From the IMG/VR virus record IMGVR_UViG_3300028569_000019, positions 1 to 64,000 of that record: DNA of 64,000 nt; one strand, written 5' to 3'. The position numbers were made by a program, and so were the translations under genes. The DNA comes from a virus. Of the stretch, positions 3,708 to 17,825 are shown one piece after another. The stretch's first letter is position 1; every line of letters starts with the position of its first letter. The notes below the pieces were generated by a model, which searched no databases, was not told the DNA's origin, and saw nothing but the letters and a program-made list of their open reading frames with translations.

Positions 3708-3890
3708 AATTATGTCACTAAGCGAATCGCAGTTAGCAATATTGAGTTGGATATTTACGACAGGATGTTCTGTATTATTGATTGCATCTACTGCAATAAT
3801 ATTGTATATGATGTATTTGTTTGTGAAGTTGGTTAAAAATTTCTCAAAAAAATATTGACGAATATATAGTTGTGTGATATATATTATTAA

Positions 3891-3968
3891 ATGAGAGTCA
3901 AGTATACACATATTAAACGCTGGGATACATTTACAAATTGTGAATGTCTGGCGGTTGATATTGTATAG
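3891..3968 (+). CDS. Putative attenuator leader peptide 1 (MRVKYTHIKRWDTFTNCECLAVDIV*), not in ORF track
   Basis: ATG 3891 lies 13 nt after a TATATATT promoter-like motif; TAG stop at 3966-3968; last codons overlap the antiterminator strand; codons match tRNA array 1. Confidence 0.7.
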   Translation: MRVKYTHIKRWDTFTNCECLAVDIV

Positions 3969-4035
3969 TATGTGAACACCTTCTTGTACAAAAAATCAAC
4001 CGCCAATCCAAAAAGATGGCGGTTTTTTGTTTTTT
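3949..4035 (+). terminator. Attenuator 1: overlapping antiterminator and intrinsic terminator
   Basis: TGGCGGTTGAT (3949-3959) pairs perfectly with ATCAACCGCCA (3995-4005); alternatively AACCGCCA (3998-4005) pairs with TGGCGGTT (4017-4024), followed by a U-tract. Confidence 0.8.
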
Positions 4036-4045
4036 CGAAAAGGTG

Positions 4046-4073
4046 TTGACAAGTTGAAAAACTCATGTAAGAT
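4046..4073 (+). promoter_or_regulatory. Sigma70-type promoter
   Basis: TTGACA-16 nt-TAAGAT. Confidence 0.55.
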
Positions 4074-4134
4074 AAAAGGACATTAAACGAAACTAGTAAG
4101 TGAAATCGAAGTAACTGAAAGTTTAAAATGATGA

Positions 4135-4162
4135 TTGACAATTTAAAATAGTCTGTTAGACT
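4135..4162 (+). promoter_or_regulatory. Sigma70-type promoter of tRNA array 1
   Basis: TTGACA-16 nt-TAGACT with extended -10 TG. Confidence 0.6.
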
Positions 4163-4173
4163 TAATGAAGATT

Positions 4174-4293
4174 GTGGAAGGCTTGAAACTCCATCTGTTG
4201 AGCCACCGCCAGTAACCAAAGGTAAAGACTGGGAAAATCAATTGATTGGTCCGTGGGTGTTATGCTGGAATACAGAACCCATAGGGCGATAAT
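4174..4293 (+). ncRNA. Conserved structured leader RNA, copy 1
   Basis: Shares TTGAAACTCYATCTGWTG and TTGATYGGTC..TGGGTGTTATGCTGRAATACAGAACCCAT..GGCGATAAT with 14042-14137; compensatory base changes between the copies. Confidence 0.65.
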
Positions 4294-4342
4294 GACATAA
4301 CTGAGGTTATTGTTATTTGGTATAAGAATAAAAGATTTTTAT

Positions 4343-4417
4343 GCCTCCTAAGCATTGGTAGCGATGCAGAGGTTTTGTAAACCCCAGAGCTCGGCGCAAG
4401 CCCGGGAGGAGGCTCCA
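4343..4417 (+). tRNA. tRNA-Thr(UGU)
   Basis: GCCTCCT/AGGAGGC acceptor, loop TT-TGT-AA, encoded CCA; non-canonical T-loop CGCAAGC. Confidence 0.85.
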
Positions 4418-4429
4418 ATTTATAGTAAT

Positions 4430-4505
4430 GGTGATATTGGTGTAACAGTTAGCATTTGAGTTTGTGAAACTCACGGAACGAGGGCAGCACTCGTATATCA
4501 CCCCA
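4430..4505 (+). tRNA. tRNA-His(GUG)
   Basis: G-1:C73 extended acceptor GGTGATAT/ATATCACC, anticodon arm TGAGT-TTGTGAA-ACTCA, CCA. Confidence 0.9.
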
Positions 4506-4515
4506 AATTTATAAT

Positions 4516-4594
4516 GGCCTCATCGTCTACGAATGTAATAGGATTCTGGATTCTCAATCCGGAGAACTCGGTTTGACTCCGAGTGAGGCTACCA
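4516..4594 (+). tRNA. tRNA-Glu(CUC)
   Basis: GGCCTCA/TGAGGCT acceptor, CTGGA-TTCTCAA-TCCGG, CCA. Confidence 0.85.
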
Positions 4595-4601
4595 ATTTAA
4601 T

Positions 4602-4676
4602 TACCCTATCGTCTAGTAACTAGGACTAGTGTCCCGGACGACACTAACCTTGGTTTGAATCCAAGTGGGGTAACCA
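4602..4676 (+). tRNA. Atypical tRNA-like gene, anticodon undetermined (8-nt loop CCCGGACG)
   Basis: Intact acceptor TACCCTA/TGGGGTA, Glu-type D arm, T arm and CCA, but the anticodon arm AGTGT-CCCGGACG-ACACT lacks U33. Confidence 0.6.
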
Positions 4677-4682
4677 ATTTAT

Positions 4683-4760
4683 GCTGGTGTAGCTCAAATG
4701 GATTAGAGCGTTTGATTACGAATCAAAAGGTTGTAGGTTCAACTCCTACCATCAGCACCA
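4683..4760 (+). tRNA. tRNA-Arg(ACG)
   Basis: Canonical cloverleaf, TTTGA-TTACGAA-TCAAA, CCA. Confidence 0.95.
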
Positions 4761-4767
4761 TTTTAAT

Positions 4768-4842
4768 GGCCTATTCGACAACCAGCTAAGTCACTTGGCT
4801 TTCATCCAAGAGTAGCCGGGGCAGCACCGGCATAGGCTACCA
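4768..4842 (+). tRNA. tRNA-Glu(UUC)
   Basis: GGCCTAT/ATAGGCT acceptor, CTTGG-CTTTCAT-CCAAG, T-loop GGCAGCA, CCA. Confidence 0.88.
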
Positions 4843-4844
4843 TT

Positions 4845-4931
4845 TTTGACGGCACTGTAGGGTGCAGTCGTAAGCAAGATCACCCCTAGCATAATCTGAA
4901 ACAGTGAAGCGTTAAGATCTTGACCGTCAAA
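4845..4931 (+). ncRNA. Unassigned structured RNA within tRNA array 1
   Basis: Closing stem TTTGACGG/CCGTCAAA, nested CACTGT/ACAGTG and GGGTG/CACCC stems. Confidence 0.5.
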
Positions 4932-4939
4932 TATTTCAT

Positions 4940-5017
4940 ATCCGCCAATGTTCCAAGGATTAGGCGACAGGCTCTCCAAAAGCCCGTGGGTAAGTTCGAT
5001 TCTTACGGTGGATGCCA
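4940..5017 (+). tRNA. tRNA-Trp(CCA)
   Basis: ATCCGCC/GGTGGAT acceptor, GGCT-CTCCAAA-AGCC, GTAAG-TTCGATT-CTTAC, G73, CCA. Confidence 0.85.
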
Positions 5018-5025
5018 TTTTTTCA

Positions 5026-5204
5026 AATACATTAGGTGAAGGCAACGAACGTAGTTTAATTGGTAAAACAACCGCACGAATAAGCGGAAGTCATTCAGTT
5101 CGAATCTGAATCACTAGTTGAAGTAGTAAGTAATGTATTGACACTGATAGACATTGAATGTTATAATCTGACGAGGTTATAATTAGTAAGTGGAACGTTC
5201 GTTG
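5026..5204 (+). ncRNA. tRNA-like RNA with ~84-nt insertion between T arm and 3' acceptor strand
   Basis: CAACGAACG (5043-5051) pairs with CGTTCGTTG (5196-5204); D arm GTTT-AATTGGTA-AAAC; T arm ATTCAG-TTCGAAT-CTGAAT. Confidence 0.55.
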
Positions 5205-5228
5205 AAATCCAGTAAACATTTTTTTAAC

Positions 5229-5300
5229 TCCCCTGTAGTGTCAAAGTAGCACGGCTGGTTGTTACCCAGTTAGGTGAAGGTGCGAGTCCTTCTGGGGGAG
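5229..5300 (+). tRNA. tRNA-Asn(GUU), no encoded CCA
   Basis: TCCCCTG/TGGGGGA acceptor, GCTGG-TTGTTAC-CCAGT, G73. Confidence 0.8.
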
Positions 5301-5351
5301 CTTTCGTCAAAATAAAATACATTTTGACAGTTCACATCCATATTTATTATT

Positions 5352-6047
5352 ATGGATGTGAACCAAGATTTCAAATATACAATATATAAAACTACCAATA
5401 AAATTAACAACAAAGTTTATATTGGAATGCATAAAACAAAAAATCCATATGACAGTTATATGGGTTCTGGTAAATTATTCAAAAGAGCAGTAGGAAAATA
5501 TGGTGAAGAAAACTTTGTAAAAGAAGTTTTATTTATATTTGATACCGCTGAAGAAATGTTTGCGAAAGAAAAAGAAATAGTAAATCAATTATTTATTGAA
5601 TCAGATAATACATACAATATTATGGAAGGTGGATGTGGAGGTTATTCATATATAAATGAATCTGGTAAAAATTTGTATGGTCAGAACGGTGATATTAATC
5701 ACGGTGGAAAAAATTTATTAACTGGTAATAAAATAAAAGAATTTTTAATTGAAAAAGGATTATTTGAAGAATGGAAACAGAAAGTATCAACATCTTTAAA
5801 AGAAAAATGGAAACGAGATGGTTTTCATTGGACTGGTAGAAAACATAAAGATGAATCGAAAAAGAAAATGAGCGCAGATAGAAAAGGCAAATATACAGGT
5901 ATAGATAATTCAAATTATGGAAATTGTTGGGTTTATTCAGATTTAGAATCTAAGAATAAAACCATTAAAAAACAAGAATTAAATGATTACATAAATAATG
6001 GATGGAAACCGGGTATAAAAATGAAATATCATAAGAAAATTTCATAA
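5352..6047 (+). CDS. GIY-YIG homing endonuclease (T4 Seg-like) with NUMOD3-like motif
   Basis: YTIYKTTNKINNKVYIGMH, YMGSG, YNIMEGG; C-terminal WTGRKHKDESKKKMS. Confidence 0.9.
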   Translation: MDVNQDFKYTIYKTTNKINNKVYIGMHKTKNPYDSYMGSGKLFKRAVGKYGEENFVKEVLFIFDTAEEMFAKEKEIVNQLFIESDNTYNIMEGGCGGYSYINESGKNLYGQNGDINHGGKNLLTGNKIKEFLIEKGLFEEWKQKVSTSLKEKWKRDGFHWTGRKHKDESKKKMSADRKGKYTGIDNSNYGNCWVYSDLESKNKTIKKQELNDYINNGWKPGIKMKYHKKIS

Positions 6048-6065
6048 TAATTTTTAAATTTCAAT

Positions 6066-6188
6066 TCCAGAGTAGCTCAATGGTAGAGCATGCGGCTGTG
6101 GGCCATAAAGTATTATTTAATAGAGAGTGCAAATCTCATAAGGCCAAAGTTAACCGCAGGGTTGGGGGTTCGAAACCCTCCTCTGGAG
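6066..6188 (+). tRNA. tRNA-Asn(GUU) interrupted by a 51-nt insertion in the anticodon loop
   Basis: TCCAGAG/CTCTGGA acceptor, canonical D and T arms, TGCGG/CCGCA anticodon stem; removing 6098-6148 restores CT-GTT-AA. Confidence 0.8.
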
Positions 6189-6203
6189 CTCTTTCAATAG
6201 TTT

Positions 6204-6320
6204 TATATGATGTATGATATATGCTGATTAAGGGTTAGGCAGTTGATCAAATTGCAATAGTATGAACATAAAGTGCCTTAAGAAATTTAAATAATTTCAT
6301 TGTTCATTATACATTATATA
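6204..6320 (+). ncRNA. Unassigned structured RNA with possible pseudoknot
   Basis: 15-bp closing stem 6204-6218/6306-6320, inner hairpins, TTAAGG/CCTTAA cross-pairing. Confidence 0.5.
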
Positions 6321-6329
6321 ATTTTTCAA

Positions 6330-6430
6330 TAGGGAGTAGTAATTGATAAAAAACAAGCTAGATAGATGAGCAAGTTCGAAATTGCTTGAACGGTGTGAAA
6401 TCCTAGTGTAAGTTTAGATGAACTGCCCTA
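6330..6430 (+). ncRNA. Unassigned structured RNA
   Basis: Closing stem TAGGGAGT/ACTGCCCTA; inner CTAG/CTAG and AGCAA-GTTCGAAA-TTGCT hairpin. Confidence 0.4.
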
Positions 6431-6439
6431 CTAATTTTC

Positions 6440-6526
6440 GGGAGTATCGCATAGCAGCAATTGCTGGACACTGTAAATGTCCCGGCCTAACGGCCTTCGT
6501 AGGTGCAAGTCCTACTGCTCCCACCA
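6440..6526 (+). tRNA. tRNA-Tyr(GUA) copy 1
   Basis: GGACA-CTGTAAA-TGTCC, long variable arm, CCA. Confidence 0.9.
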
Positions 6527-6531
6527 TTTTT

Positions 6532-6617
6532 GGGGTATTATACTGATAAAGACGCAGAACGGTCTGTAAAACCGTTGCCTTCGGGCTGGGTAGGAGCATT
6601 ACCTACATACCCCACCA
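6532..6617 (+). tRNA. tRNA-Tyr(GUA) copy 2
   Basis: ACGGT-CTGTAAA-ACCGT, variable arm GCC-TTCG-GGC, CCA. Confidence 0.85.
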
Positions 6618-6624
6618 TTTCAAT

Positions 6625-6698
6625 TGACCGTTAATTCAATAGCAGAATAGACGACTGATAATCGTCCTACGCCGGAGCGTAACCGGCACGGTCAACCA
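6625..6698 (+). tRNA. tRNA-Ile(GAU)
   Basis: TGACCGT/ACGGTCA acceptor, GACGA-CTGATAA-TCGTC, CCA. Confidence 0.9.
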
Positions 6699-6700
6699 AT

Positions 6701-6770
6701 TTTGTTAGTAAGTGTTGGGTTCAATCCCCTTTACTCTGTGATCACTGGTGAGAACATAACTACTAACAAA
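6701..6770 (+). ncRNA. Small RNA with a T-loop-like hairpin inside a 10-bp closing stem
   Basis: TTTGTTAGTA/TACTAACAAA stem enclosing GGG-TTCAATC-CCC and a TGG-containing hairpin. Confidence 0.45.
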
Positions 6771-6776
6771 TTCAAC

Positions 6777-6856
6777 GGATCAGTATTGGCCACGCCTTCT
6801 AAGCGATAGGTGCATAATTGGATAAGTGTTGGGTTCGACTCCCACCTGATCCACCA
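6777..6856 (+). tRNA. Non-canonical tRNA-Arg(UCU)-like gene (D-arm-like element 3' of the anticodon arm)
   Basis: GGATCAG/CTGATCC acceptor plus CCA, CGC-CTTCTAA-GCG, T arm TGGG-TTCGACT-CCCA. Confidence 0.6.
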
Positions 6857-6909
6857 AATATTTAAAAATAAATGAAACTATTTGCTCTATACAACATATT
6901 TATTTAGAT

Positions 6910-7545
6910 ATGATGAAATGTAAATGGTGTTTGATTAATTTTGATTTAAATGATAAACCTAAAGGATGGGCAGCTGCACACACAAGATGGTGTGATCACA
7001 ATCCAAAAAAACAAGAGTATATAGATAAACTAAAATCTGCAAATAGAACACATTTAATGTGTGAATCAAAAAAAATAAGCGGAAAGACAAATCAATTCAC
7101 AAAAGCAAAAGTAAACGGATTTACTTTAACTAGTAAATTAAAAGGTAGAAAAAATATTGCTCTAAAAGGAAAGAAACATTCAATTCAAAGTAAGCTGAAT
7201 ATGAGTAAAGGATCTTTAAAATCTACTCATAGAAGATTACGCAGAGGAATTATTCAATATAAAGGAATAACACTCGATTCTAGTTGGGAATTAGAATTAG
7301 CTAAAAGATTGGATGATTTAAACATTAAATGGAATAGACCTGATCCATTAAAATGGAAAGATTCCAATGGTTTAGAACACAATTATTTTCCTGATTTCTA
7401 TTTAATAGACTATAATCTATATTTAGATCCAAAAAATCCAGGAGCATATAAAGTTCAAAAATCAAAAATTGATATACTGCTTAATACTTACAATAATATT
7501 TTAATTTTAAAAACTTTAGAAGAATGCAAAGGATTTAAAATTTGA
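6910..7545 (+). CDS. Putative homing endonuclease, NUMOD3 + PD-(D/E)XK domain
   Basis: KGKKHSIQSKLNMS; DSSWE...YFPDFYL...YLDPK. Confidence 0.75.
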   Translation: MMKCKWCLINFDLNDKPKGWAAAHTRWCDHNPKKQEYIDKLKSANRTHLMCESKKISGKTNQFTKAKVNGFTLTSKLKGRKNIALKGKKHSIQSKLNMSKGSLKSTHRRLRRGIIQYKGITLDSSWELELAKRLDDLNIKWNRPDPLKWKDSNGLEHNYFPDFYLIDYNLYLDPKNPGAYKVQKSKIDILLNTYNNILILKTLEECKGFKI

Positions 7546-8317
7546 ATGCTTTTTTGAAGGCATTGCCTGTTTTTTTGGCACCATCATTAATTGCATTACC
7601 TGCATTATTTACAACATTAGTTGTTTCTTTGACGGCAGTATTTGTTACATTGGTAGTTTGTTGAACTACTGGTTGAGTTGCTTTTGCAACGGTATTAGCA
7701 TCTTTTACAACTTTATTTGTATCAATTGTAGCACTTACATCTACCTTTGCGCCAACTAATACTGCAACATCACCACTTACACCAACGGTTACTTTACCAT
7801 TGTCCATAGTGGCTTGAGCAGAACCACCGCCACCAACTTGTTCACCAACACTAACGCCTGAACCAGCGGTAACTGATGCGCCTCTTACTTTTGCAGTTCC
7901 AGAAGCGTCAACACCTACCGCATTACCAATAGAACCTTCCGCACCAACTGCAACACCTTTGTCACCGGCTTGAACATTTGCAGATGCGTTTGTACCACTG
8001 ACTGCGTAAGCGTCTGCTGTACCTGCAACGCCTACACCATTACTTTGAACTTTACCATCTACAACAACGTGAGCTTCTGTACCGCTACTATAACTTGCGT
8101 TTGCGTATACATTGTTACCATCTAGACCACCGGCAGCGGATGCTTCTGTACCAGTTTTTACTGAAGCTTCTACACCAACGGATGCGTTTTTATTTCCAAC
8201 ACTTGCGCCAGCGGATGCTTCTGCGGTATTTGTGTAAGAAACACTTGCTGAGTTTTTATCAACTGTTGCGGTTGCGGATTGGTTGATTTCTGCGGATGTA
8301 TTTGTTTGTGTTACCAT
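7535..8317 (-). CDS. Gly/Ala/Val-rich beta-strand protein, antisense to the tRNA array
   Basis: 260-aa ORF with alternating AxAGASVG-type strands; TATATAT motif upstream on the - strand. Confidence 0.7.
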   Translation of the reverse strand: MVTQTNTSAEINQSATATVDKNSASVSYTNTAEASAGASVGNKNASVGVEASVKTGTEASAAGGLDGNNVYANASYSSGTEAHVVVDGKVQSNGVGVAGTADAYAVSGTNASANVQAGDKGVAVGAEGSIGNAVGVDASGTAKVRGASVTAGSGVSVGEQVGGGGSAQATMDNGKVTVGVSGDVAVLVGAKVDVSATIDTNKVVKDANTVAKATQPVVQQTTNVTNTAVKETTNVVNNAGNAINDGAKKTGNAFKKAFKF

Positions 8318-8368
8318 ATTTGATATATATGGTAGAATAGATACAAGATTGAATTTAAAGTTTTCTTT

Positions 8369-8444
8369 GCCTTCATAGTATAAAAGTATTACACATCATT
8401 GGTAATGATGAAACGTAGGGGGGCGGTACCTACTGGAGGCTCCA
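8369..8444 (+). tRNA. tRNA-Thr(GGU)
   Basis: GCCTTCA/TGGAGGC acceptor, CATCA-TTGGTAA-TGATG, CCA; T-loop enlarged by a G run. Confidence 0.8.
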
Positions 8445-8497
8445 TTTTAAAAATATATTTAGAAGTGTGTGGATTATATATATAGTAAAATAAATTT

Positions 8498-9301
8498 ATG
8501 GAATCTACAAACGCTCCCCAAACATTTTCGTTTACTAATAAAAAGGTATTATATGCAATAATTGCTGTAATTGTATTGGTAATTTTTGGATTATACACAT
8601 TATTTAGTTCAATGAATAGAGATAATAAAGCTCTAACTAAGAAGGTTGTTAATCAGACTGAGATTGTTGTAAATCAAAGTTTATTAATTACCAATTTAAA
8701 TCAAAAGAATGTGGAATTGGCGACGTTATTGAAGAGTTATGACAATAAATTGAGTATATTGCATACTAATTTAACTCAGTTACAAAGTATTACCGAGAAG
8801 TTAAAAGTATCATCTGATGAAAAGGATGTGAAGATTAAAGATTTGTCTCAAGAAAAAACTGCGCTTGAATCTGATTTAAAGTCTTTGCGTAATACGCTTA
8901 CAAAAATGACCAAAGAGATTGTAGATTTAGGCGACGAACTTAAAGTTGCAAAGACTGATAAAGCTCAAAATGAGCTTCTATCTAAGATTGAATTACTTAC
9001 AAAGGAACGAGATTTGTTAAAAAACAAGATAGTAGAGTATGAAAAAATTATAGAAGAATTGAAGAAAGAAAATGTGATTTTGGCTCAAAATTTGAGACAA
9101 AGTGTGAAAAAAAGTGGTTATGAATTTAAAAACAAATTGGGTGAGTGGCCAAAAGGTGGCGAGGTTTTAATGAGGATGTCAAGTTATCACACAAATAATT
9201 CTTTAAAAGAAAATAGTAATGTAAGTGAACCAAAACAAGATGAAAAACCTAAAAAAGTAGGTTTTTGGAAGCGTATTTTTGGTTCGGGTGAAACTGAATG
9301 A
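8498..9301 (+). CDS. Membrane-anchored coiled-coil protein
   Basis: N-terminal TM helix VLYAIIAVIVLVIFGLYTLF, long heptad region, C-terminal KKVGFWKRIFG amphipathic motif. Confidence 0.75.
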   Translation: MESTNAPQTFSFTNKKVLYAIIAVIVLVIFGLYTLFSSMNRDNKALTKKVVNQTEIVVNQSLLITNLNQKNVELATLLKSYDNKLSILHTNLTQLQSITEKLKVSSDEKDVKIKDLSQEKTALESDLKSLRNTLTKMTKEIVDLGDELKVAKTDKAQNELLSKIELLTKERDLLKNKIVEYEKIIEELKKENVILAQNLRQSVKKSGYEFKNKLGEWPKGGEVLMRMSSYHTNNSLKENSNVSEPKQDEKPKKVGFWKRIFGSGETE

Positions 9302-9307
9302 TTTAAT

Positions 9308-9381
9308 GCCTATATAGCTTAAAGGTAAAGCATCAATTTCGTAAACAACGATCACAGGTTCGATTCCAGTAACAGGCTCCA
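9308..9381 (+). pseudogene. Degenerate or chimeric tRNA-Thr(CGU)
   Basis: D arm, TTCGTAA loop, TTCGATT T-loop and TCCA end are present, but the anticodon stem (TCAAT/ACAAC) and part of the acceptor do not pair. Confidence 0.65.
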
Positions 9382-9389
9382 ATTTTAAT

Positions 9390-9480
9390 GCACGACGACG
9401 GAGCTAGTGAACTGAGATGTCTGCAAAACATCATTGTATGAAAATACATATGCAAGGAGCGTAACCTTGGTCGTGCTCCA
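9390..9480 (+). tRNA. tRNA-Cys(GCA) with long variable arm
   Basis: GCACGAC/GTCGTGC acceptor, GATGT-CTGCAAA-ACATC, U73, CCA; variable hairpin TGTAT-GAAA-ATACA. Confidence 0.82.
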
Positions 9481-9534
9481 AAATTTGTTAAATTAATTCA
9501 CATATTATACAATACTCCATATATTTATGTATAT

Positions 9535-10308
9535 ATGAATTCTATTGAATTAATTTGTAAAAATTGTAATATTAAATTTGATAAAAATATCTATTATTAT
9601 AGACAATCTCTTAAGAGAGGATATACCAACTTTTTTTGTTCAATTAAATGTTCTTCTATCTTTGCTGGCGGAATTCTTAAAGAAAAAGGTAAACAATTAA
9701 AAATTAATTGTGAAAGTTCATATTTAAAAAATCCAAAAAATTGCCCTCAGTGTCATAAATTAATTTCTTATAAAAAAAGATACAATGAGTATTGTTCAAA
9801 AAAATGTTCTGCGATTTATACACAAAAAGATAAAGGACATTGTGAATGGAGCATTGAAGATAGAGAGAAAATTTCTTTACGAGTTAAAGATTATCATAAT
9901 AAAAATCCAAAGACTAAAAAGTTAAAAATAAAAATATGTAAAAATTGTAATAATGAAATAAAAGACAAACACAAAAGAATATGCAATAGTTGTTCAGAAA
10001 AATATTATAAATTTTACAGACCATTATGTGAGTTTGATTTTATTTTAGAAAATTACCCTGATAAATTTGATTTATCTTTAATTAAAAAATACGGAAAATA
10101 TAGTCCTAAAAATAAAGGTAATAATTTAACAGGAATAAGTAGAGATCATCTTTATTCTGTAAAAGACGGATTTAAAAATAAAGTAAGTCCTGATATCATT
10201 AGACATCCAGCAAATTGTATGTTAGTAAAACATAAAGAAAATCAAAAAAAATATAACAAAAGTTCTATTTCATTAGAAGAATTAAAAAAAAGAATATTAG
10301 AATGGTAA
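9535..10308 (+). CDS. Zinc-finger HNH-type homing endonuclease
   Basis: Repeated CxxC / FCSxxC motifs; C-terminal SRDHLYSV...HPANC...HKEN. Confidence 0.75.
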   Translation: MNSIELICKNCNIKFDKNIYYYRQSLKRGYTNFFCSIKCSSIFAGGILKEKGKQLKINCESSYLKNPKNCPQCHKLISYKKRYNEYCSKKCSAIYTQKDKGHCEWSIEDREKISLRVKDYHNKNPKTKKLKIKICKNCNNEIKDKHKRICNSCSEKYYKFYRPLCEFDFILENYPDKFDLSLIKKYGKYSPKNKGNNLTGISRDHLYSVKDGFKNKVSPDIIRHPANCMLVKHKENQKKYNKSSISLEELKKRILEW

Positions 10309-10347
10309 TCCAACACGGGACTCCATTTTTTATATATTTATTACTAT

Positions 10348-10818
10348 ATGATATTATTAAAAGATTTATTGATAGAATCACCGTCAGTAATAACAGTATA
10401 TAGAGGTGTTAATCCTGCGTATGGTGATGTTGGTTTGGGTATCAACAGCACCAAGATAGGAGATAAATTAGTTGCAACGTTGGGGCCTAATCATACTGAT
10501 AATTTAGATGTTGCTAAACGATTTGGCAAACAGATAATAACTACTAAATTAAATGGGCCTGGATTGGAATTGTCTCATTATAATGACATAGTTAATTTAT
10601 ATAAGCAGTATGAAAATATGTTACCGCCTGGTCTTGCAAAACAAATCAAATATAGTAGTGGACAAGAACAATTGGAGTTAATACAATTAGCAGGTAAAGA
10701 GTTACGTAGTATATTGAGTAAGAAATATGGATATATTAAGAGTCCACTTGCGGTAAGTGATGCTAATTATTTAAGTCAAAAAGGATTAACAGGAGATTTG
10801 TATATACCGTTGAGATAA
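10348..10818 (+). CDS. Putative ART-fold protein, paralog of 1531..1998
   Basis: VYRGVNPAYGDVGLGINSTKIGDKLVATLGPNHTDN identical to the paralog. Confidence 0.5.
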   Translation: MILLKDLLIESPSVITVYRGVNPAYGDVGLGINSTKIGDKLVATLGPNHTDNLDVAKRFGKQIITTKLNGPGLELSHYNDIVNLYKQYENMLPPGLAKQIKYSSGQEQLELIQLAGKELRSILSKKYGYIKSPLAVSDANYLSQKGLTGDLYIPLR

Positions 10819-10837
10819 TCAAACTACTTATTTTGGT

Positions 10838-11011
10838 ATGAATGAATTTAATCTATATCAAAAGTTTTTGGAGTTGAAGAAGGAAATAGAAAAACATAAA
10901 TGGATAGAGAGTGAAAAGAACGGTAATGATATAGGATTTGAACGTGCATTAGTTGATTGGATATCTAAACATAGAACTGGTTGGTGCGAGAATATAAAGC
11001 ATAATAAATAA
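10838..11011 (+). CDS. Small protein (57 aa, MNEFNLYQKF...HKWIESEKNGNDIGFERALVDW...), not in ORF track
   Basis: Open frame ATG 10838 to TAA 11011; HKWIESEK.G.DIGFERA..DW motif recalled from small conserved PVC-superphylum proteins (DUF4032-like). Confidence 0.7.
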   Translation: MNEFNLYQKFLELKKEIEKHKWIESEKNGNDIGFERALVDWISKHRTGWCENIKHNK

Positions 11012-11031
11012 AATTAATATATTTATAACAT

Positions 11032-11448
11032 ATGACCAAAAATGATTTGAAAAAATTAATAAAAAGTTTGACAAAAGAAGTGTTAAACGAAGATTTTGAC
11101 AATGCAGCCGAAGTGGAAAGTGATAAACTTACTGCTCATTTATCCGAAGATGATACTGCTGCTAACATTAAAGATTTAGAAAAATTGTTAAAAAACCCAG
11201 ATCCAAGTAGAGCAAAAGATTATGGTTCTTTGGAAAATTATAAGAAAATGTTAATGGGTAAAATTGCTAAATTAAAGAAACAAAAGAATGAAAGCAGTGA
11301 TCCTTTTAGAGACATTGTAAAGAAGTATGCTAGTCTTTATAGAGATAGTGAACTTTCACGCAGAGAGAAGGAAGATTATTTTAAATGGTTACAAACCAAC
11401 CAACCTGAGAAATTTAAAAAGGTTGTAGATAAGCTTAAAAAGAAGTAA
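11032..11448 (+). CDS. Hypothetical protein, paralog of 112..381 with C-terminal extension
   Basis: Shared ~60-aa core; TATTTATA at 11020. Confidence 0.75.
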   Translation: MTKNDLKKLIKSLTKEVLNEDFDNAAEVESDKLTAHLSEDDTAANIKDLEKLLKNPDPSRAKDYGSLENYKKMLMGKIAKLKKQKNESSDPFRDIVKKYASLYRDSELSRREKEDYFKWLQTNQPEKFKKVVDKLKKK

Positions 11449-11511
11449 AAATAGATTTAAATTTAAACAAAGTGAAACGATTAATGTTAAAATTAATCGT
11501 TTTATTTTTTA

Positions 11512-11539
11512 TTGACAATGAGACGTTGACAAGTATAAT
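11512..11539 (+). promoter_or_regulatory. Sigma70 consensus promoter
   Basis: TTGACA-16 nt-TATAAT. Confidence 0.65.
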
Positions 11540-11550
11540 AAAAGTATAGT

Positions 11551-11871
11551 ATGAATGAACTAAGTAAAATTGATATGGCGAATTTAGTCTTTAGTAATGA
11601 CAAAAAGGCTAAAATCAAAGATGTATTGTGTTCCAAGTATGGCGCAACTGACGTACAATATAGAGATCTAACGTATGGTATTTGTATTGATGTTGTTGGC
11701 ACTGATAGTTTTAGATTTGTAAAGAACGCAATACTAAAAACATTGGATGTGCATGAAGAAACTTTGTCCGTCTTGGGTGAAAGTAAGAGAAGTATGAAAG
11801 CTTCTTATGTTTATTTACCCGAAAAGGATAAAGTTTTGAACAAACGTCTCAAGAAGCTGAAAACTGCTTGA
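11551..11871 (+). CDS. Hypothetical protein
   Basis: 106-aa ORF directly after a consensus promoter. Confidence 0.65.
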   Translation: MNELSKIDMANLVFSNDKKAKIKDVLCSKYGATDVQYRDLTYGICIDVVGTDSFRFVKNAILKTLDVHEETLSVLGESKRSMKASYVYLPEKDKVLNKRLKKLKTA

Positions 11872-12020
11872 ATAAATAAATAAGTTCTTATAAGATTATA
11901 AAAACTATATATTGATGAACAATTTCGAAAAAATACATTTTATTGGTTTTTTCGGATAACGTTAAGCTGTTCTTAACGTAGTTAGTAAACATAAACAAAC
12001 AAAATAAAGGATAGTTAAAT

Positions 12021-12731
12021 ATGAAGAAAGTATTAGTATTAGTGTCATTGTTGACCGCTCTAGCTGTATCTGCTGGAGATAATTCAAACCTCTCAGTAGA
12101 AGCTGGGTACAACAACCAATACATCGTTAATGGTGTAGCTCGTTCCGAGGGAACAGCGTTTGTTGGTGTAGGTGCTGTAAAGAGTCTAAAGTATGCAGAT
12201 GTATACTTGGGTGGCACTCTTTTGGCCAATGGCGACCTTGATCAGTCACACTGGACATTGGGTACGGGTAAGGAAGTTAGTGTATGGAAGGATGTATTTT
12301 CCGCACGTGCTGATGCTACTGTAACTCGTCACCAAGCTGGTAATTTTGGTATTCCAAACAGTACTGAGTTTGGTGTCAAGTTGGCTCTACCAAACAAGTT
12401 GGCAACTCCTTATGTACGTGGATCATTTGACATTGATCTAGATCAAAAGGGTGCATTTGTTGGTTTGGAACGTGCTCAAAAGTTGCCATTTGGATTTGTA
12501 ATCACACCTGCTGTTGAATATGGTAAGGTATTTGGTGCATCCAGTGATTACACTGCTGTAAATGCCAAGGCATCATTGACTCGTCCATTCGAAACTTCAT
12601 TTGGTGTATTGACTCCATTTGCTACTGTTGGATGGTATGATAATAATTTCAAGGTTGGCAATTATAATTGGGCAACCCGTGAATTTAGTGGAGATGTAGT
12701 ATATTCTGGTGGTTTGAGATTGACCTTCTAA
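12021..12731 (+). CDS. Outer-membrane beta-barrel protein (porin-like)
   Basis: Signal peptide MKKVLVLVSLLTALAVSA, amphipathic strands, terminal GLRLTF Bam signal, AAGGA SD. Confidence 0.8.
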   Translation: MKKVLVLVSLLTALAVSAGDNSNLSVEAGYNNQYIVNGVARSEGTAFVGVGAVKSLKYADVYLGGTLLANGDLDQSHWTLGTGKEVSVWKDVFSARADATVTRHQAGNFGIPNSTEFGVKLALPNKLATPYVRGSFDIDLDQKGAFVGLERAQKLPFGFVITPAVEYGKVFGASSDYTAVNAKASLTRPFETSFGVLTPFATVGWYDNNFKVGNYNWATREFSGDVVYSGGLRLTF

Positions 12732-12752
12732 TCTAGACTACAATAGTGTATT

Positions 12753-12787
12753 AAAACCCGCTTAGAAATAAGCGGGTTTTTTATTTT
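12753..12787 (+). terminator. Intrinsic terminator
   Basis: AAAACCCGC/GCGGGTTTT hairpin plus U-tract. Confidence 0.85.
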
Positions 12788-12822
12788 AATAGTCTATTTA
12801 TAATTAAAGAAAGGTTTATTTT

Positions 12823-13794
12823 ATGTCATCAACAAGTGGATCAAGTGGTAGTAGCGGAATAGGCACTTCCTCATTAAAAACAATAGTTGTTAAATCAACG
12901 TCTGTGGTAACTAAATTTATATCTAATATATTGTTACCAAAAGTGGTACAAAGTACGATAGTGGGTAGTAGTGGTATAGGTGGCAGTAGCGGGACGGGTG
13001 GTAGTAGTGGATCTTCTGATGGTATGCGTACTAACTGGACATCGAATATCAAATCCACAGTGATAAAAATGATGGCAGCTAGCAAAGACCGCAGTTTATT
13101 CAGTGCGTTTATCCAATCTACTTTTTCTTGGGTTCGAAATTCTGCTTCTTGGGTAATATCTTATAAATGGACAGGTACTGCAGCTGGTATAAATGGACTC
13201 GGTGGTGTTGGAGGTGGAACTCTTATTACTAGCAAGCATGTCTTATTGTCTGCACACGTTCCTTATTTGACAAATTCAGAAATCTTTTTTGTTAACGATA
13301 ATAATGTGACTTTCAAGTACAACATTATCAAGATCGACAAGATTGATGGAAGTGATATTGCAATTGGAACGCTTGATCGATCAATTGATAGTAGTTTGAA
13401 GATATATTCGGTATTACCAGACAACTGGCAACAATACATCAAAACTGAAATTAATAGTGTGATGGGGGTACAATTCATAACTTTACGGTTACCTGTTTTG
13501 TTCCTCAATCAAGACAAAAAAGTTTCAATTGGAGATATGACCCGATTAATTGATGCAGTTGCTGATGTAGAAGCTTCAGTATTTGGCACATCACAGTCGT
13601 ATTATGAGACACAAAGAGGTGGTGATTCTGGAAATCCAATATTTGTGCAGGTAGGTAGTGAATTGGCACTATTGGGTACGTGGTATAAAGTTGGAGCTTT
13701 TGCTTGGCTAATCAGTAGGAAAACTCAAGTCGAGTCTATTATTGGTCAAAAACTGAACGTAATTAATATGACTGGATTTGAGAAGGTATCCTGA
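12823..13794 (+). CDS. Trypsin-like serine protease with Ser/Gly-rich N-terminus
   Basis: GTLITSKHVLLSAH (His), SDIAIG (Asp), GGDSGNP (Ser). Confidence 0.85.
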   Translation: MSSTSGSSGSSGIGTSSLKTIVVKSTSVVTKFISNILLPKVVQSTIVGSSGIGGSSGTGGSSGSSDGMRTNWTSNIKSTVIKMMAASKDRSLFSAFIQSTFSWVRNSASWVISYKWTGTAAGINGLGGVGGGTLITSKHVLLSAHVPYLTNSEIFFVNDNNVTFKYNIIKIDKIDGSDIAIGTLDRSIDSSLKIYSVLPDNWQQYIKTEINSVMGVQFITLRLPVLFLNQDKKVSIGDMTRLIDAVADVEASVFGTSQSYYETQRGGDSGNPIFVQVGSELALLGTWYKVGAFAWLISRKTQVESIIGQKLNVINMTGFEKVS

Positions 13795-13872
13795 ACGTTA
13801 ACGAAATTTATTTAAAACTTATTAAATAATTTTATTGATTTTCAATTTCAAACACTATATATTAGTACGAAT

Positions 13873-13926
13873 ATGAATTTAATTTCACAACCTAGTCAAG
13901 CCAGTCAACTCCCATCAGGAAGTTGA
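13873..13926 (+). CDS. Putative attenuator leader peptide 2 (MNLISQPSQASQLPSGS*), not in ORF track
   Basis: ATG 13873 follows a TATATATT motif; TGA at 13924-13926 lies just before the antiterminator strand; codons match tRNA array 2. Confidence 0.7.
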   Translation: MNLISQPSQASQLPSGS

Positions 13927-13928
13927 GT

Positions 13929-13993
13929 ACGAGGTTGTTTGCTAAAAAGATCCAACCCGTCACTCTTAAAAAGAATGATGGGTTTTTGATTTT
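13929..13993 (+). terminator. Attenuator 2: overlapping antiterminator and intrinsic terminator
   Basis: ACG(A)GGTTG (13929-13937) pairs with CAACCCGT (13953-13960); alternatively AACCCGTCA (13954-13962) pairs with TGATGGGTT (13976-13984), followed by a U-tract. Confidence 0.72.
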
Positions 13994-13998
13994 AATGG

Positions 13999-14026
13999 TT
14001 GACAATTTGACGAAGTATGGTAAATT
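13999..14026 (+). promoter_or_regulatory. Sigma70-type promoter of tRNA array 2
   Basis: TTGACA-16 nt-TAAATT with extended -10 TG. Confidence 0.6.
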
Positions 14027-14041
14027 AGAAATATAACGAAC

Positions 14042-14137
14042 GGGGTTGAAACTCTATCTGATGTCCCCAACATAAGTTAAAACATTTGATCGGTCACTGG
14101 GTGTTATGCTGAAATACAGAACCCATCTGGCGATAAT
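14042..14137 (+). ncRNA. Conserved structured leader RNA, copy 2
   Basis: Homologous to 4174-4293; same position between the promoter and the first tRNA. Confidence 0.65.
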
Positions 14138-14166
14138 TAAAATAAAGTATATAACAATTTTTAAAT

Positions 14167-14240
14167 GGGGGTTTAGTTTAAAAGCAAAACAGTAGTTTTA
14201 CACACTTCAAACGGTGGAGCATTACCATCAACCCCTACCA
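14167..14240 (+). tRNA. tRNA-Val(UAC)
   Basis: GGGGGTT/AACCCCT acceptor, loop TT-TAC-AC, CCA. Confidence 0.85.
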
Positions 14241-14308
14241 TTTTTAAAATAAATTAATATTTTAATTGAACTCTTACCTATTTATTACCATAGACATAAT
14301 AATGTAAT

Positions 14309-15004
14309 ATGAAAAGTAAAATTTGGAATATTTCAACGGAGGAATTTAAAAAAATTATAAAAAACAATTGTTGTATGGCAGATGTTTGTAGAACTTTGAA
14401 TATGAGAAAAGAGGGTGGTAATTATAGAACTATTAAACGTAGAATTGAATTTGAAAAAATTGATACTTCACATTTTCTTTCCAAAAAAGAAATTTTTTCA
14501 ATTAAAAATGTAAATACAGTTTCAAAAGATGAACTTTTACTTAGATTAAAAGAAAATACTGACATAGAAACTGTGTGGCTTAAAAATAAATTAATAAAAT
14601 TCAATTTATTTGACAATAAATGTGCAGAATGTTCTATAAAAGATTTTTGGAATAATAAACCACTTAAATTACAATTAGATCACATTGATGGTGATCATTT
14701 TAATAATACATTATCTAATCTTAGATTATTATGTCCAAATTGTCATTCACAGACTCATACATTTTGTGGGAAATCTAAAAAAACTAAAAAATATAAATGT
14801 TCAGAATGTAACACTGAAACAAGTGGTTATACAAATATTTGTAGAACGTGTTCAATGAAAAAACTAAGAAAAGTTGAAAGACCAACAAAAGATGTTTTAC
14901 AACAAGAAATTAAAAATAATACATTTATATCACTTAGTAAAAAATACGGTGTATCAGATAATGCAATTAGAAAATGGTGTAAATATTATTCAATAGATTT
15001 TTAA
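14309..15004 (+). CDS. HNH homing endonuclease with C-terminal HTH
   Basis: LQLDHIDGDHFNNTLSNLRLLCPNCHSQT; KKYGVSDNAIRKW. Confidence 0.92.
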   Translation: MKSKIWNISTEEFKKIIKNNCCMADVCRTLNMRKEGGNYRTIKRRIEFEKIDTSHFLSKKEIFSIKNVNTVSKDELLLRLKENTDIETVWLKNKLIKFNLFDNKCAECSIKDFWNNKPLKLQLDHIDGDHFNNTLSNLRLLCPNCHSQTHTFCGKSKKTKKYKCSECNTETSGYTNICRTCSMKKLRKVERPTKDVLQQEIKNNTFISLSKKYGVSDNAIRKWCKYYSIDF

Positions 15005-15005
15005 T

Positions 15006-15083
15006 CCATCCGTCGCCTAACTTGGTATGGCACTTCATTTGGGGTGAAGAATAATAGGCGTTCAAATCGCCTCGGGTGGACCA
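15006..15083 (+). tRNA. tRNA-Pro(UGG)
   Basis: CTTCA-TTTGGGG-TGAAG, canonical T arm, CCA. Confidence 0.92.
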
Positions 15084-15090
15084 TTTTAAC

Positions 15091-15168
15091 GGCTATGTAG
15101 ACCAACTGGAAGGAGTCGTCTGTCTTAGAAACAGAATAGTATTGGTTCAAATCCAATCATAGCTACCA
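15091..15168 (+). tRNA. tRNA-Leu(UAG) copy 1, short variable loop
   Basis: TCTGT-CTTAGAA-ACAGA, A73, CCA. Confidence 0.85.
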
Positions 15169-15177
15169 TTTTGTAAT

Positions 15178-15255
15178 GGCTACGTAGCCCAACTGGAAGG
15201 AGTCGTCTGTCTTAGAAACAGAATAGTATTGGTTCAAATCCAATCATAGCTACCA
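15178..15255 (+). tRNA. tRNA-Leu(UAG) copy 2 (chimera of copies 3 and 1)
   Basis: 5' end matches copy 3 and the rest matches copy 1, giving C-A and C-T mismatches. Confidence 0.7.
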
Positions 15256-15264
15256 TTTTGTAAT

Positions 15265-15342
15265 GGCTACGTAGCCCAACTGGAAGGAGGCGTCTGTCTT
15301 AGAAACAGAATAGTACTGGTTCGAATCCAGTCGTAGCTACCA
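15265..15342 (+). tRNA. tRNA-Leu(UAG) copy 3, short variable loop
   Basis: GGCTACG/CGTAGCT acceptor, same anticodon arm, CCA. Confidence 0.85.
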
Positions 15343-15351
15343 ATTTTTTGT

Positions 15352-15444
15352 GGATGATAGGCAGATATAAGCTGGCTGCACTAGTCTTGAAAACTAGGTC
15401 CGTCTAAAAAACGGAGGTCCGGGCAGTACGGACATCATCCGCCA
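15352..15444 (+). tRNA. tRNA-Ser(UGA)
   Basis: CTAGT-CTTGAAA-ACTAG, long variable arm, G73, CCA. Confidence 0.88.
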
Positions 15445-15451
15445 TTTTAAT

Positions 15452-15516
15452 ACAACTCCACTTGACAATGGAACCGAAGACTGATAATATCGTCTCTTGA
15501 AGAAATCGGAGTTTGT
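15452..15516 (+). ncRNA. Unassigned small structured RNA between the two tRNA-Ser genes
   Basis: ACAACTCC/GGAGTTTGT closing stem; inner AGAC/GTCT hairpin. Confidence 0.35.
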
Positions 15517-15528
15517 CAAAAGATTTAT

Positions 15529-15619
15529 GGAAAGGTGTCTGAGTGGTCTAAAGAGACAGTTTGCTAAACTGTTGTGGCCTAAAAAACCACCGAGGGTTCG
15601 AATCCCTCCCTTTCCGCCA
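15529..15619 (+). tRNA. tRNA-Ser(GCU)
   Basis: ACAGT-TTGCTAA-ACTGT, long variable arm, G73, CCA. Confidence 0.93.
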
Positions 15620-15622
15620 TTT

Positions 15623-15696
15623 GCGGGTATAGCTTAGTGGTAAAGCGCCAGTCTTCCAAACTGGCAAGGTGAGTTCGATTCTCACTACCCGCTCCA
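15623..15696 (+). tRNA. tRNA-Gly(UCC)
   Basis: GCGGGTA/TACCCGC acceptor, CCAGT-CTTCCAA-ACTGG, U73, CCA. Confidence 0.95.
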
Positions 15697-15703
15697 ATTT
15701 AAC

Positions 15704-15778
15704 TGGGGATTGATTGTAATAGTAGCAAATCAGACTTTGAATCTGAGAGAATCGGAGCGTAACCGGTATCCCCTGCCA
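15704..15778 (+). tRNA. tRNA-Gln(UUG)
   Basis: TCAGA-CTTTGAA-TCTGA, U1 mismatch, G73, CCA. Confidence 0.85.
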
Positions 15779-15845
15779 TTTTATTTAATTAAATATTCAA
15801 TGATAAAATCGAACTTTCATTCTGTTCTTACATATTTATGTATGT

Positions 15846-16526
15846 ATGAGTAAAAAAAGAACAAGTATTATCTGGAAAATTTCAAACGAAGATTTTGCCA
15901 ACTTAGTGAAAAATAGCAAAACTATGACTGAGTTACTAAAGCACTTTGGTATGGAAAATAAAGGTGGAAATTTTAAAACGTGTAAAAAAAGAATTAATGA
16001 ATTACAAATTAATACTAGTCATTTTCTTTCTAGGACACAATCAAGTACTTGGAAGAGACAAGTTACAAAAGAAGATTTATTAAAAAAATTGACAACAAAT
16101 TCGTGTTATAATAGAACAGATTTAAAAAAACGTTTAATTAAATTTGATATAATAAAATATGAATGTGCAAATTGTAAAAATAATGGCATCTGGGGAAATA
16201 AAAAATTAACTCTTCAATTAGAACATAAAAATGGAATATCAGATGATAATAGATTTGAAAATTTAGAATTTTTATGTCCTAATTGTCATAGTCAAACGTC
16301 TACATTTGCAGGTCGTTCTCTAAATAAACACCGCATTAAACCATCGGAAATAAATCCTGATTGGAGACATCAACCAAGATATGAAAAAAGAAAAGTTGAT
16401 AGACCTTCAAAAGAAATTTTAGAAAAAGAAATTAAAGAAAATACTATGGTTAGTCTTGGGAAGAAATACGGTGTATCGGATAATTCCATAAGAAAATGGT
16501 GTAAAAATTATGGTATCAATTTATAA
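15846..16526 (+). CDS. HNH homing endonuclease (paralog of 14309..15004)
   Basis: LQLEHKNGISDDNRFENLEFLCPNCHSQT; KKYGVSDNSIRKW. Confidence 0.92.
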   Translation: MSKKRTSIIWKISNEDFANLVKNSKTMTELLKHFGMENKGGNFKTCKKRINELQINTSHFLSRTQSSTWKRQVTKEDLLKKLTTNSCYNRTDLKKRLIKFDIIKYECANCKNNGIWGNKKLTLQLEHKNGISDDNRFENLEFLCPNCHSQTSTFAGRSLNKHRIKPSEINPDWRHQPRYEKRKVDRPSKEILEKEIKENTMVSLGKKYGVSDNSIRKWCKNYGINL

Positions 16527-16529
16527 TGA

Positions 16530-16625
16530 TGTGCGTGTTGGGTGGAAACGTCCAACAGCGTGAGGGACACGATACACCCCTGTATGTCTGACCCGGACGA
16601 ATCTGATCCAGATAGGATAGGGTAA
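16530..16625 (+). ncRNA. Unassigned GC-rich structured RNA
   Basis: TGTTGGGTG-GAAA-CGTCCAACA GNRA hairpin, GAC..ATACA-CCCC-TGTAT.GTC hairpin, ACCC/GGGT stem. Confidence 0.5.
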
Positions 16626-16671
16626 ATTTTTAGTTTGACTTATACTATATATTGGTGTAAGATTTTTAAAT

Positions 16672-16746
16672 GGGCTTGTGGTGCTAGTGGTAACACGACC
16701 GGTTTGCATCCGGTAATCTCCAGTTCGACCCTGGACAGGTCCACCA
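16672..16746 (+). tRNA. tRNA-Ala(UGC)
   Basis: G3:U70 pair, ACCGG-TTTGCAT-CCGGT, CCA. Confidence 0.92.
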
Positions 16747-16795
16747 TTTTAAATTAATGTATGTTGATTAGTTTCAACTATATATTAATCATACC

Positions 16796-16871
16796 GCACT
16801 AGTAGCTCAATTGGTAGAGCGTATCGTTGCCAACGATAAGGTTGTCGGATCGTACCCGACCTAGTGCTCCA
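16796..16871 (+). tRNA. tRNA-Gly(GCC)
   Basis: GCACTAG/CTAGTGC acceptor, TATCG-TTGCCAA-CGATA, U73, CCA. Confidence 0.92.
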
Positions 16872-16928
16872 TCTTAATTTTGTGTGATCAAAAATCACTT
16901 TTTGCTCCGAAGACTACTATTTATTAGT

Positions 16929-17817: not shown

Positions 17818-17825
17818 ATTTTATT

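Follow-up and report, generated by a model that had tools for sequence, protein, structure and literature searches.

How does a phage that carries many transfer RNA (tRNA) genes decide when to express them? The role of phage tRNAs has been debated for decades, with codon compensation on one side and escape from tRNA-cleaving host defences on the other. We took up this question for a viral DNA of 64,000 nucleotides (positions 1 to 64,000 of the IMG/VR record IMGVR_UViG_3300028569_000019; this whole stretch is called the window below), in which two tRNA arrays are each preceded by a short open reading frame (ORF) and a terminator. A preliminary description of the window had proposed that the two ORFs encode leader peptides that control transcription into the arrays. 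Comparison with related loci makes it very likely that both regions contain a translation-coupled terminator switch of some kind. Judging from the sequence comparisons reported here, we consider it probable that this switch is a tRNA-sensing attenuator of the trp/his type, in which the ribosome reads a roster of many different codons and thereby gates the very tRNA genes that read those codons.

The record to which the window belongs, as its first 64 kilobases (kb), is 96.8 kb long, and its completeness was judged to be about 29%. Because a related record of 295.8 kb (G001; handles of this form denote genomes and loci) was judged complete, the virus can be regarded as a giant phage. Relatives, most of which come from freshwater metagenomes, were collected through a conserved RNA motif that lies downstream of the terminators, giving 18 viral loci and 114 metagenome stretches with 138 occurrences of the motif altogether. 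Since these loci were ascertained through the RNA motif and not through the leaders, the leaders themselves played no part in the selection. Four further divergent leaders were recovered from the fetched loci through their terminator region, and the leaders of the leader/array pairs compared below were located by short start patterns. In the GenBank phage collection, blastn with the module as query returned homing-endonuclease similarity only and no relative. The 5' half of the RNA motif, searched against viral contigs, gave mostly chance matches, and its 3' half was present in only 2 of 88 new places.

The two arrays have the same order of elements in front of them (Table 1): a promoter element TATATATT, a short ORF, an RNA strand A, a strand B that is shared with a terminator, a T-run, one or more promoters of the TTGACA type, a structured RNA, and then the tRNAs. 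This order had been claimed in the preliminary description, and in both modules all of the elements were found at the places given there, with coordinates in agreement. A simple terminator scan listed neither of the two terminators, because of their loop length or a mismatch.

Both leader ORFs proved to be conserved in about 100 related viral and metagenome loci (leader 1 in about 56, leader 2 in about 40), as were the alternative hairpins, which was the check that the preliminary description had proposed. Leader 1 occurs in 26 distinct nucleotide versions. All four Val codons are used at its codon 3, and synonymous changes are present at codons 9, 13 and 15. Codon 4 is hypervariable, yet confined to Asn, Gln, His, Glu, Arg and Lys, and every version contains exactly one His codon, either at position 4 or at position 7. 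Insertions and deletions within the leader ORFs are multiples of three without exception, and the spacer after the stop codon is free in both length and sequence. The common form of leader 2 is nearly invariant. At about five loci, a leader 2 of 60-66 codons starts from the same promoter and carries the same 3' part in frame. In L015, L084, L122 and L124 the 60-66-codon ORF replaces leader 2, and its last 11-14 residues are those of the short leader; when the 66-codon form was compared by tblastn with the fetched loci and the genome G000, its N-terminal part was found only in L014 and L015. The in-frame insertions and deletions, the synonymous variation and the in-frame long forms indicate that both ORFs are read by ribosomes.

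We then compared the codons of each leader with the tRNAs of the array behind it. As the preliminary description had stated, codons 2-19 of leader 1 contain all nine amino acids served by array 1 and no Ser, Gln, Pro, Gly, Leu or Ala, and 14 of 16 codons of leader 2 are for array 2 amino acids. When the joint precision and recall of such matches were compared with those of random windows of this phage's own proteins, P was <5e-6 to 5e-4 per pair. As a look-elsewhere control, all 542 ATG-initiated ORFs of 15-35 codons in the 96.8-kb record were scored. The ORF at 3891 ranked 1st of the 542 for the array 1 set of the family and 541st for the array 2 set, and the ORF at 13873 ranked 1st for the array 2 set and 495th for the array 1 set. 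With the window's own reduced array 1 set, the ORF at 3891 ranked 7th. Lys, Phe, Asp and Val of leader 1 had at first been counted as lacking a counterpart in array 1. This holds for Lys, Phe and Asp in the array of the window, but these residues are matched in more complete relatives (Val only sometimes): array 1 of G001, G002, G003, G007 and G008 also contains tRNAs for Phe, Lys (two), Asp and Arg(UCU), and sometimes for Val. The missing window genes, for Phe, Lys (two), Asp and Thr(CGU), lie between Tyr and Cys in L158, L160 and L161, an interval that is occupied in the window by endonuclease and other genes. When sensor codons read by their own array were counted under strict wobble rules, the complete relative G001 matched 18 of 18, G004 17 of 17, G002 and G003 18 of 20 each, and the window 12 of 18.

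The composition of the leaders is kept even where their sequence is not. Type B (on a 248-kb metagenome contig), G006, G007 and G005 have homologues of leader 1 in which the order of residues is altered and the set of amino acids is the same. Three types of leader 2 share little sequence, and all are built of Ser, Gln, Pro, Leu, Ala, Val and Gly; two of the three cover all seven array 2 amino acids. In type C (L155), a single array of 12 tRNAs (Thr, Ala, Ile, Gly, Pro, Tyr, Ser, Gln, Met, Glu, His and Cys) is preceded by a leader in which all twelve of these amino acids are present, and Lys, Arg, Trp and Phe are missing from both leader and array. G008 has neither Glu tRNAs nor Glu codons, and the reduced array of G005 lacks Arg and Glu tRNAs, as its leader lacks Arg and Glu. 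Over 11 pairs of the leader 1 type, 180 of 220 amino-acid cells (presence or absence in leader and array) agreed, against a mean of 160 under permutation of the arrays (P = 0.002; P = 0.016 without the last six codons), but these P values are not to be multiplied as if independent, because the pairs are related by descent. The proposal that leader codons track the content of the array was thus borne out over the set of pairs, with exceptions in the window, G005, G002 and G006 that are taken up below.

If the leaders act through attenuation, the two competing helices should be constrained as well. Helix statistics were obtained from an alignment of 33 distinct sequences. In the terminator helix 98.7% of cells are paired, three pairs have compensatory changes, and its score was reached by none of 500 shuffles. 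The A:B helix varies little in its distal part, where pairing reaches 97-100%; for its proximal part the pairing count is lower, at 87%, since half of the sequences have a shifted register there. A change from G to A in the shared B strand (type C and G007) is accompanied by a change from C to U in both strands that compete for it, A and C. The distal antiterminator helix of L026 has a double compensatory change, and the A:B helix of module 1 is retained in relatives with compensatory and wobble changes. In the module 2 terminator of relatives, GTCAC/GTGAC alternates with GTCAC/GTGAT, that is, with a G-U wobble. In every leader type the stop codon is either part of strand A or no more than 10 nucleotides away from it. 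In types B and C the stop codon is a TGA inside strand A, and the remainder of the strand is non-coding yet conserved, which points to pairing, not coding, as the constraint.

Folding predicts that a ribosome could set the balance between these helices. In the minimum-free-energy (MFE) fold of the free leader 1 RNA of the window, a hairpin between regions 1 and 2 (the 1:2 hairpin) stands beside the terminator. In relatives a change from ACA to ACC in this hairpin is accompanied, by eye, by a changed partner, AGAGGT. Such 1:2 hairpins are present in the MFE folds of the free leaders, and the outcome for free RNA varies between types. Leader 2 also contains a conserved hairpin, in which 13905-13912 pairs with 13918-13926, the stop codon included, and its antiterminator has GGTTG at 13933-13937 facing CAACC at 13953-13957. 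Masked MFE folds of full-length leaders were uninformative for several types, and the switch was therefore modelled on RNA up to strand B only, with a ribosome mask of 30 nucleotides. With the mask on codons 1-15 of leader 1, A was paired to B and the terminator arm was sequestered; with the mask anywhere from codon 17 to the stop codon, B was free for the terminator. Leader 2 of the window behaved in the same way, with the switch at its last three codons. The mutually exclusive antiterminator and terminator that had been proposed for both modules are thus reproduced as a predicted switch, and the antiterminator itself amounts to 11 base pairs in module 1 but to only 5-6 for leader 2 of the window.

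The promoters in front of the leaders suggest that translation could begin almost as soon as the RNA does. The ATG of leader 1 lies 5-6 nucleotides past the -10 element of the promoter P0, and that of leader 2 lies 9 nucleotides past the element of P0', which is conserved in relatives. A TTGAYK box stands 17 nucleotides upstream of the TATATATT element in both modules, and the -10 element and its spacing of 6-9 nucleotides to the ATG are kept in all leader types. Inspection of the sequence revealed no Shine-Dalgarno sequence before either leader ORF, and the messenger RNA (mRNA) of module 1 is probably leaderless or nearly so. Most genes of the phage likewise have no Shine-Dalgarno sequence and have an AT-rich element a few bases before the ATG, so that a start very near the promoter appears to be normal for this phage. 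Elements of the ATATTTAT type were seen 5-8 nucleotides before the ATG at 6894-6913, 9519-9538, 10332-10351, 15830-15849 and many other gene starts of G000. Their recurrence suggests phage-specific promoters that would give mRNAs that are leaderless or have very short leaders.

Based on these observations, we propose the following mechanism. Transcription from P0 would begin so near the ATG that hardly any untranslated RNA precedes the coding sequence, and the ribosome would trail the polymerase. If all codons are read promptly, the ribosome would reach the last codons or the stop codon and cover strand A; strand B would then pair with strand C, the terminator would form, and the P0 transcript would stop before the array. 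If scarcity of a tRNA instead holds the ribosome up at any one of the sensor codons, strand A would be left free and would pair with B once B is made. With A:B formed there would be no terminator, and the polymerase would go on past the structured RNA and transcribe the tRNA array. A constitutive basal supply of tRNAs would come from P1 and P2, which lie downstream of the terminator, and P0 with the attenuator would add to it on demand. The coupling of translation to transcription, the response to the tRNA level, and the trigger, be it cleavage of host tRNAs or plain feedback from supply, are what we infer from the arrangement of these elements.

Several observations weigh against this mechanism. 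TTGACA boxes of the promoters downstream of the terminators are conserved in relatives. Through these sigma-70-type promoters, which stand before each array, expression is possible independently of P0, as a caveat in the preliminary description had rightly warned; the attenuator would therefore control only RNAs that start at P0 or further upstream. In four RNA libraries, contigs of relatives match from about 4178-4180 onward, covering the structured RNA and tRNAs, which is a weak hint for P1 and P2. None of them covers 3700-4177, and since contigs cannot show absence they are uninformative on leader transcription. The tracking is imperfect: codons for Lys, Phe and Asp persist in the leaders of the window and of G005 without tRNAs for them in array 1, the Cys tRNA of G002 has no Cys codon as counterpart, and G006 has Glu tRNAs and no Glu codon. 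We read these exceptions as a lag after recent gene loss, but the exceptions set a limit to the claim. A third tRNA array of the complete relative has neither leader nor RNA motif. For any one amino acid the leader offers just one to three codons, and the shortage of a single tRNA may therefore elicit only a weak response. The short antiterminator of leader 2 in the window compares with one of 10 base pairs in type B, and the simple mask left B unfreed in two divergent leader 2 types. Equilibrium folds of the full-length RNA favour the terminator state in several types, as in the trp leader, and any switch must consequently be kinetic. Finally, the long forms of leader 2 are compatible with descent from an ordinary small gene.

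How far do other explanations account for the same data? The switch may be real and yet sense the general speed of translation, or the availability of ribosomes, with codons of the phage tRNAs chosen just so that, once those tRNAs are present, reading is fast and P0 is shut off. All of the structural evidence above would be the same for such a sensor, the sparse sampling of each amino acid is unlike the codon runs of classical attenuators, and the exceptions to tracking would matter less. A sensor of general speed needs no roster, however, yet four of five independent leader types include every one of the 12-14 amino acids of the array, composition is kept while the order of residues changes, and Glu, Arg, Lys, Trp and Phe have been lost jointly from leader and array. 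We consider this explanation unlikely.

That the leaders are ordinary micro-protein genes, with a promoter and terminator of their own, which by chance precede promoter-driven arrays, appears to us less probable still. The conserved peptide sequence of leader 1 and the independent promoters after the terminators would suit such genes, and leader 2 could then be the deletion remnant of a 60-66-codon gene, whose N-terminal part, seen at the loci with the long form, plausibly folds. A micro-protein would be expected to keep the order of its residues, but in types B, C, G005 and G007 this order is rearranged and the set of amino acids alone persists; both ORFs rank first for the array match, the stop codon always lies beside the strand that competes with the terminator, the helix covaries, and the short leader 2 is the commoner form (about 40 loci versus 5). 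The simplest explanation, that an intergenic terminator is followed by a promoter and that the ORFs and the complementarity are due to chance, could draw on the AT-rich genome with its 542 small ORFs and on the terminators' escape from the simple scan. It is contradicted by the conservation, the in-frame insertions and deletions, the covariation and the P values against random windows, and we give it very little credence. The tRNA-sensing attenuator is thus the explanation that we prefer, and the features on which it is built are collected in Table 1.

Table 1. Positions of the elements of the two leader-array modules in the window.
Feature	Position	Strand	Basis and remarks
Promoter P0, module 1	3855-3885	+	TTGACG 3855-3860, TATATA/TATATATT 3878-3885; read from sequence
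Leader ORF 1	3891-3968	+	25 codons, ATG start; codons 2-19 are the proposed sensor
Region 1:2 hairpin in leader 1	3918-3953	+	MFE fold; ties up the start of strand A in untranslated RNA
Putative antiterminator 5' strand (A), module 1	3949-3959	+	In codons 20-23; 11 perfect base pairs with 3995-4005
B strand, intrinsic terminator and T-run, module 1	3995-4035	+	Arms 4000-4005 / 4017-4022, T-run 4023-4035
Sigma-70-type promoters P1, P2	4046-4073, 4135-4162	+	Promoter scan, TTGACA type
Conserved structured RNA, copy 1	4180-4293	+	Head of array 1; 86% identical to 14079-14137
tRNA array 1	4343-9477	+	ARAGORN, Rfam, purpose-written scanner
Promoter P0', module 2	13835-13863	+	TTGATT, 17 nucleotides, TATATT; TATATATT at 13856-13863
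Leader ORF 2	13873-13926	+	17 codons
Region 1 (CACAACC) pairing with region 2, the A strand, module 2	13886-13892, 13931-13941	+	MFE fold, untranslated RNA; inferred pairing
B strand (CAACC 13953-13957), terminator and T-run, module 2	13952-13987	+	Arms 13955-13967 / 13972-13983; sequence and folding
Sigma-70-type promoter P1'	13999-14026	+	Promoter scan and relatives
Conserved structured RNA, copy 2	14042-14137	+	Head of array 2
tRNA array 2	14167-16868	+	ARAGORN, Rfam, purpose-written scanner

The content of the arrays was established by several methods. With default settings ARAGORN found only 12 tRNA genes in the window, and with introns allowed it made 183 calls, most of them spurious. 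Rfam and a purpose-written scanner, checked on the window, added more, and the resulting inventory confirmed the one given in the preliminary description. In about half of the tRNAs the T loop is of the AGCNNNA or GGCAGCA type instead of TTCRANY, which is why ARAGORN misses these genes by default; they lie at 4343-4417, 4431-4502, 4768-4839, 6532-6614, 6625-6695, 14167-14237, 15352-15441 and 15704-15775. Array 1 contains Thr(UGU), His, Glu(CUC), Arg(ACG), Glu(UUC), Trp, Asn, two Tyr, Ile, Thr(GGU) and Cys, together with an Asn gene that has a 51-nucleotide insert and an odd Arg(UCU)-like RNA. It is broken up by homing-endonuclease and other genes, and its Cys tRNA (9390-9477) lies 5.4 kb from leader 1, beyond a gene on the opposite strand. 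Array 2 contains Val, Pro, three Leu(UAG), Ser(UGA), Ser(GCU), Gly(UCC), Gln, Ala and Gly(GCC), with two HNH endonuclease genes within it.

Some RNAs in array 1 are unusual. The otherwise canonical tRNA-Asn(GUU) at 6066-6188 (Rfam, 52.5 bits) carries its 51-nucleotide insert in the anticodon loop, and the size of the insert is below that of a group I intron; G001, G002 and G003 share a 123-nucleotide tRNA-Asn gene with the insert. Two tRNA-like RNAs, at 4600-4679 and 5043-5204, have abnormal anticodon arms, one with a 7-base-pair stem and a 6-nucleotide loop and the other with an 8-nucleotide loop and an 84-nucleotide insertion. The insertion carries a perfect promoter of the form TTGACA-18-TATAAT at 5138-5167. 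Structured RNAs between the tRNAs at 4846-4938 and 6699-6776 have closing stems of 7-10 base pairs and no CCA end. In L162 (G004), a tRNA with the anticodon CUA, of the amber suppressor type, was found inside array 1 on the reverse strand, at about 5579 of the reverse complement. The gene directly upstream of module 1 (2049-3707) matches Nol-like carbamoyltransferases (PHROG 1601, E 2e-88).

The structured RNA at the head of the arrays is about 100 nucleotides long, with 86% identity between the two copies and six pairs that have compensatory changes. Its fold consists of a stem-loop with an invariant 18-nucleotide loop (TTGAAACTCYATCTGNTG) and a second, nested domain. RNA-library contigs contain it, and a search of Rfam gave no match. 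Short similarities (GAAAC, CTGATG and ACAGAACCC) had led us to consider a hammerhead or RNase P RNA; the stems that these require are missing, and this identity was rejected. In L018 and G004 the structured RNA is preceded by an inserted ORF of about 50 codons, not by a promoter.

A bolder version of the tRNA-sensing attenuator, which we put forward only tentatively, is that giant phages carry tRNA-on-demand modules in which the leader lists exactly the codons of its own array, the loss of any single tRNA, for instance when a host anticodon nuclease cleaves it, stalls the ribosome and leads to resupply by that array only, and the structured RNA is part of the circuit, for example in processing or sensing. 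If tRNA sensing is correct, the phage would measure decoding and adjust its supply of tRNAs accordingly, and the modules would provide a compact natural sensor of tRNA availability that is directly testable with reporters. They also suggest a rule for interpreting unannotated short ORFs beside tRNA arrays in metagenomic phage genomes.

Do the modules belong to a known class of regulators? The T-box binds uncharged tRNA through a specifier codon and the T-box sequence, responding to one tRNA and requiring no ribosome. Like the phage modules, it reads the state of tRNA by transcription antitermination; the T-box family (Rfam RF00230) gave no match within 3000-18000 at E up to 1. Weak matches to the Rfam families Leu_leader and Trp_leader at 12650-12808 (E 0.28-0.6) coincide with the terminator that follows the gene at 12021-12731 and were discarded as due to chance. 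An accessory tRNA array that rises when translation is impaired is known from Anabaena sp. PCC 7120, where the trn operon, a silent array of 26 tRNA genes, is induced by translational stress (PMC8421152, PMC10272220). Unlike the phage modules, the trn operon is cellular and is controlled at its promoter by the repressor TrcR, which acts on direct repeats, and the text of the paper on it does not mention attenuation, a leader peptide or a terminator. Phage tRNAs have been described as a counter-measure to host anticodon nucleases, in work that concerns the sequences of the tRNAs and no sensing or regulated expression of arrays (PMC10264068). That system offers a reason for a phage to resupply particular tRNAs during infection, and anticodon nucleases of the host are for the present modules a plausible motive only. 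The preliminary description knew of no account of multi-codon attenuation of a phage tRNA operon, and our literature search found none, nor any paper on attenuation of tRNA genes.

The closest relatives in mechanism are the leader-peptide attenuators of enterobacteria, trpL, hisL, pheL and the multivalent thr and ilvGMEDA leaders, in which a stall for want of charged tRNA leads to readthrough. To our knowledge, all described leader-peptide attenuators regulate enzymes of amino-acid biosynthesis or aminoacyl-tRNA synthetases. The phage modules would work like this family but form a variant of it, because the genes downstream are tRNA genes and not those of biosynthetic enzymes. With enterobacterial attenuators, among them pheL (PMC3082878), they share a short leader ORF, an intrinsic terminator, an antiterminator that shares a strand with it and a stop codon positioned for masking; the upstream 1:2 hairpin of those attenuators may have a counterpart in the one predicted here by the folds of the free leaders. 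The multivalent thr and ilvGMEDA leaders come nearest, since they also sample more than one amino acid. Unlike the enterobacterial leaders, those of the phage sample 7 to 14 amino acids, with one to three codons each and no runs, their mRNA is leaderless or nearly so, and constitutive promoters follow the terminator. The phage, moreover, has one module per array, two of them here, with complementary sets of codons. If the two leaders do sense tRNAs in this way, they would extend classical attenuation from single amino acids to whole sets of tRNAs.

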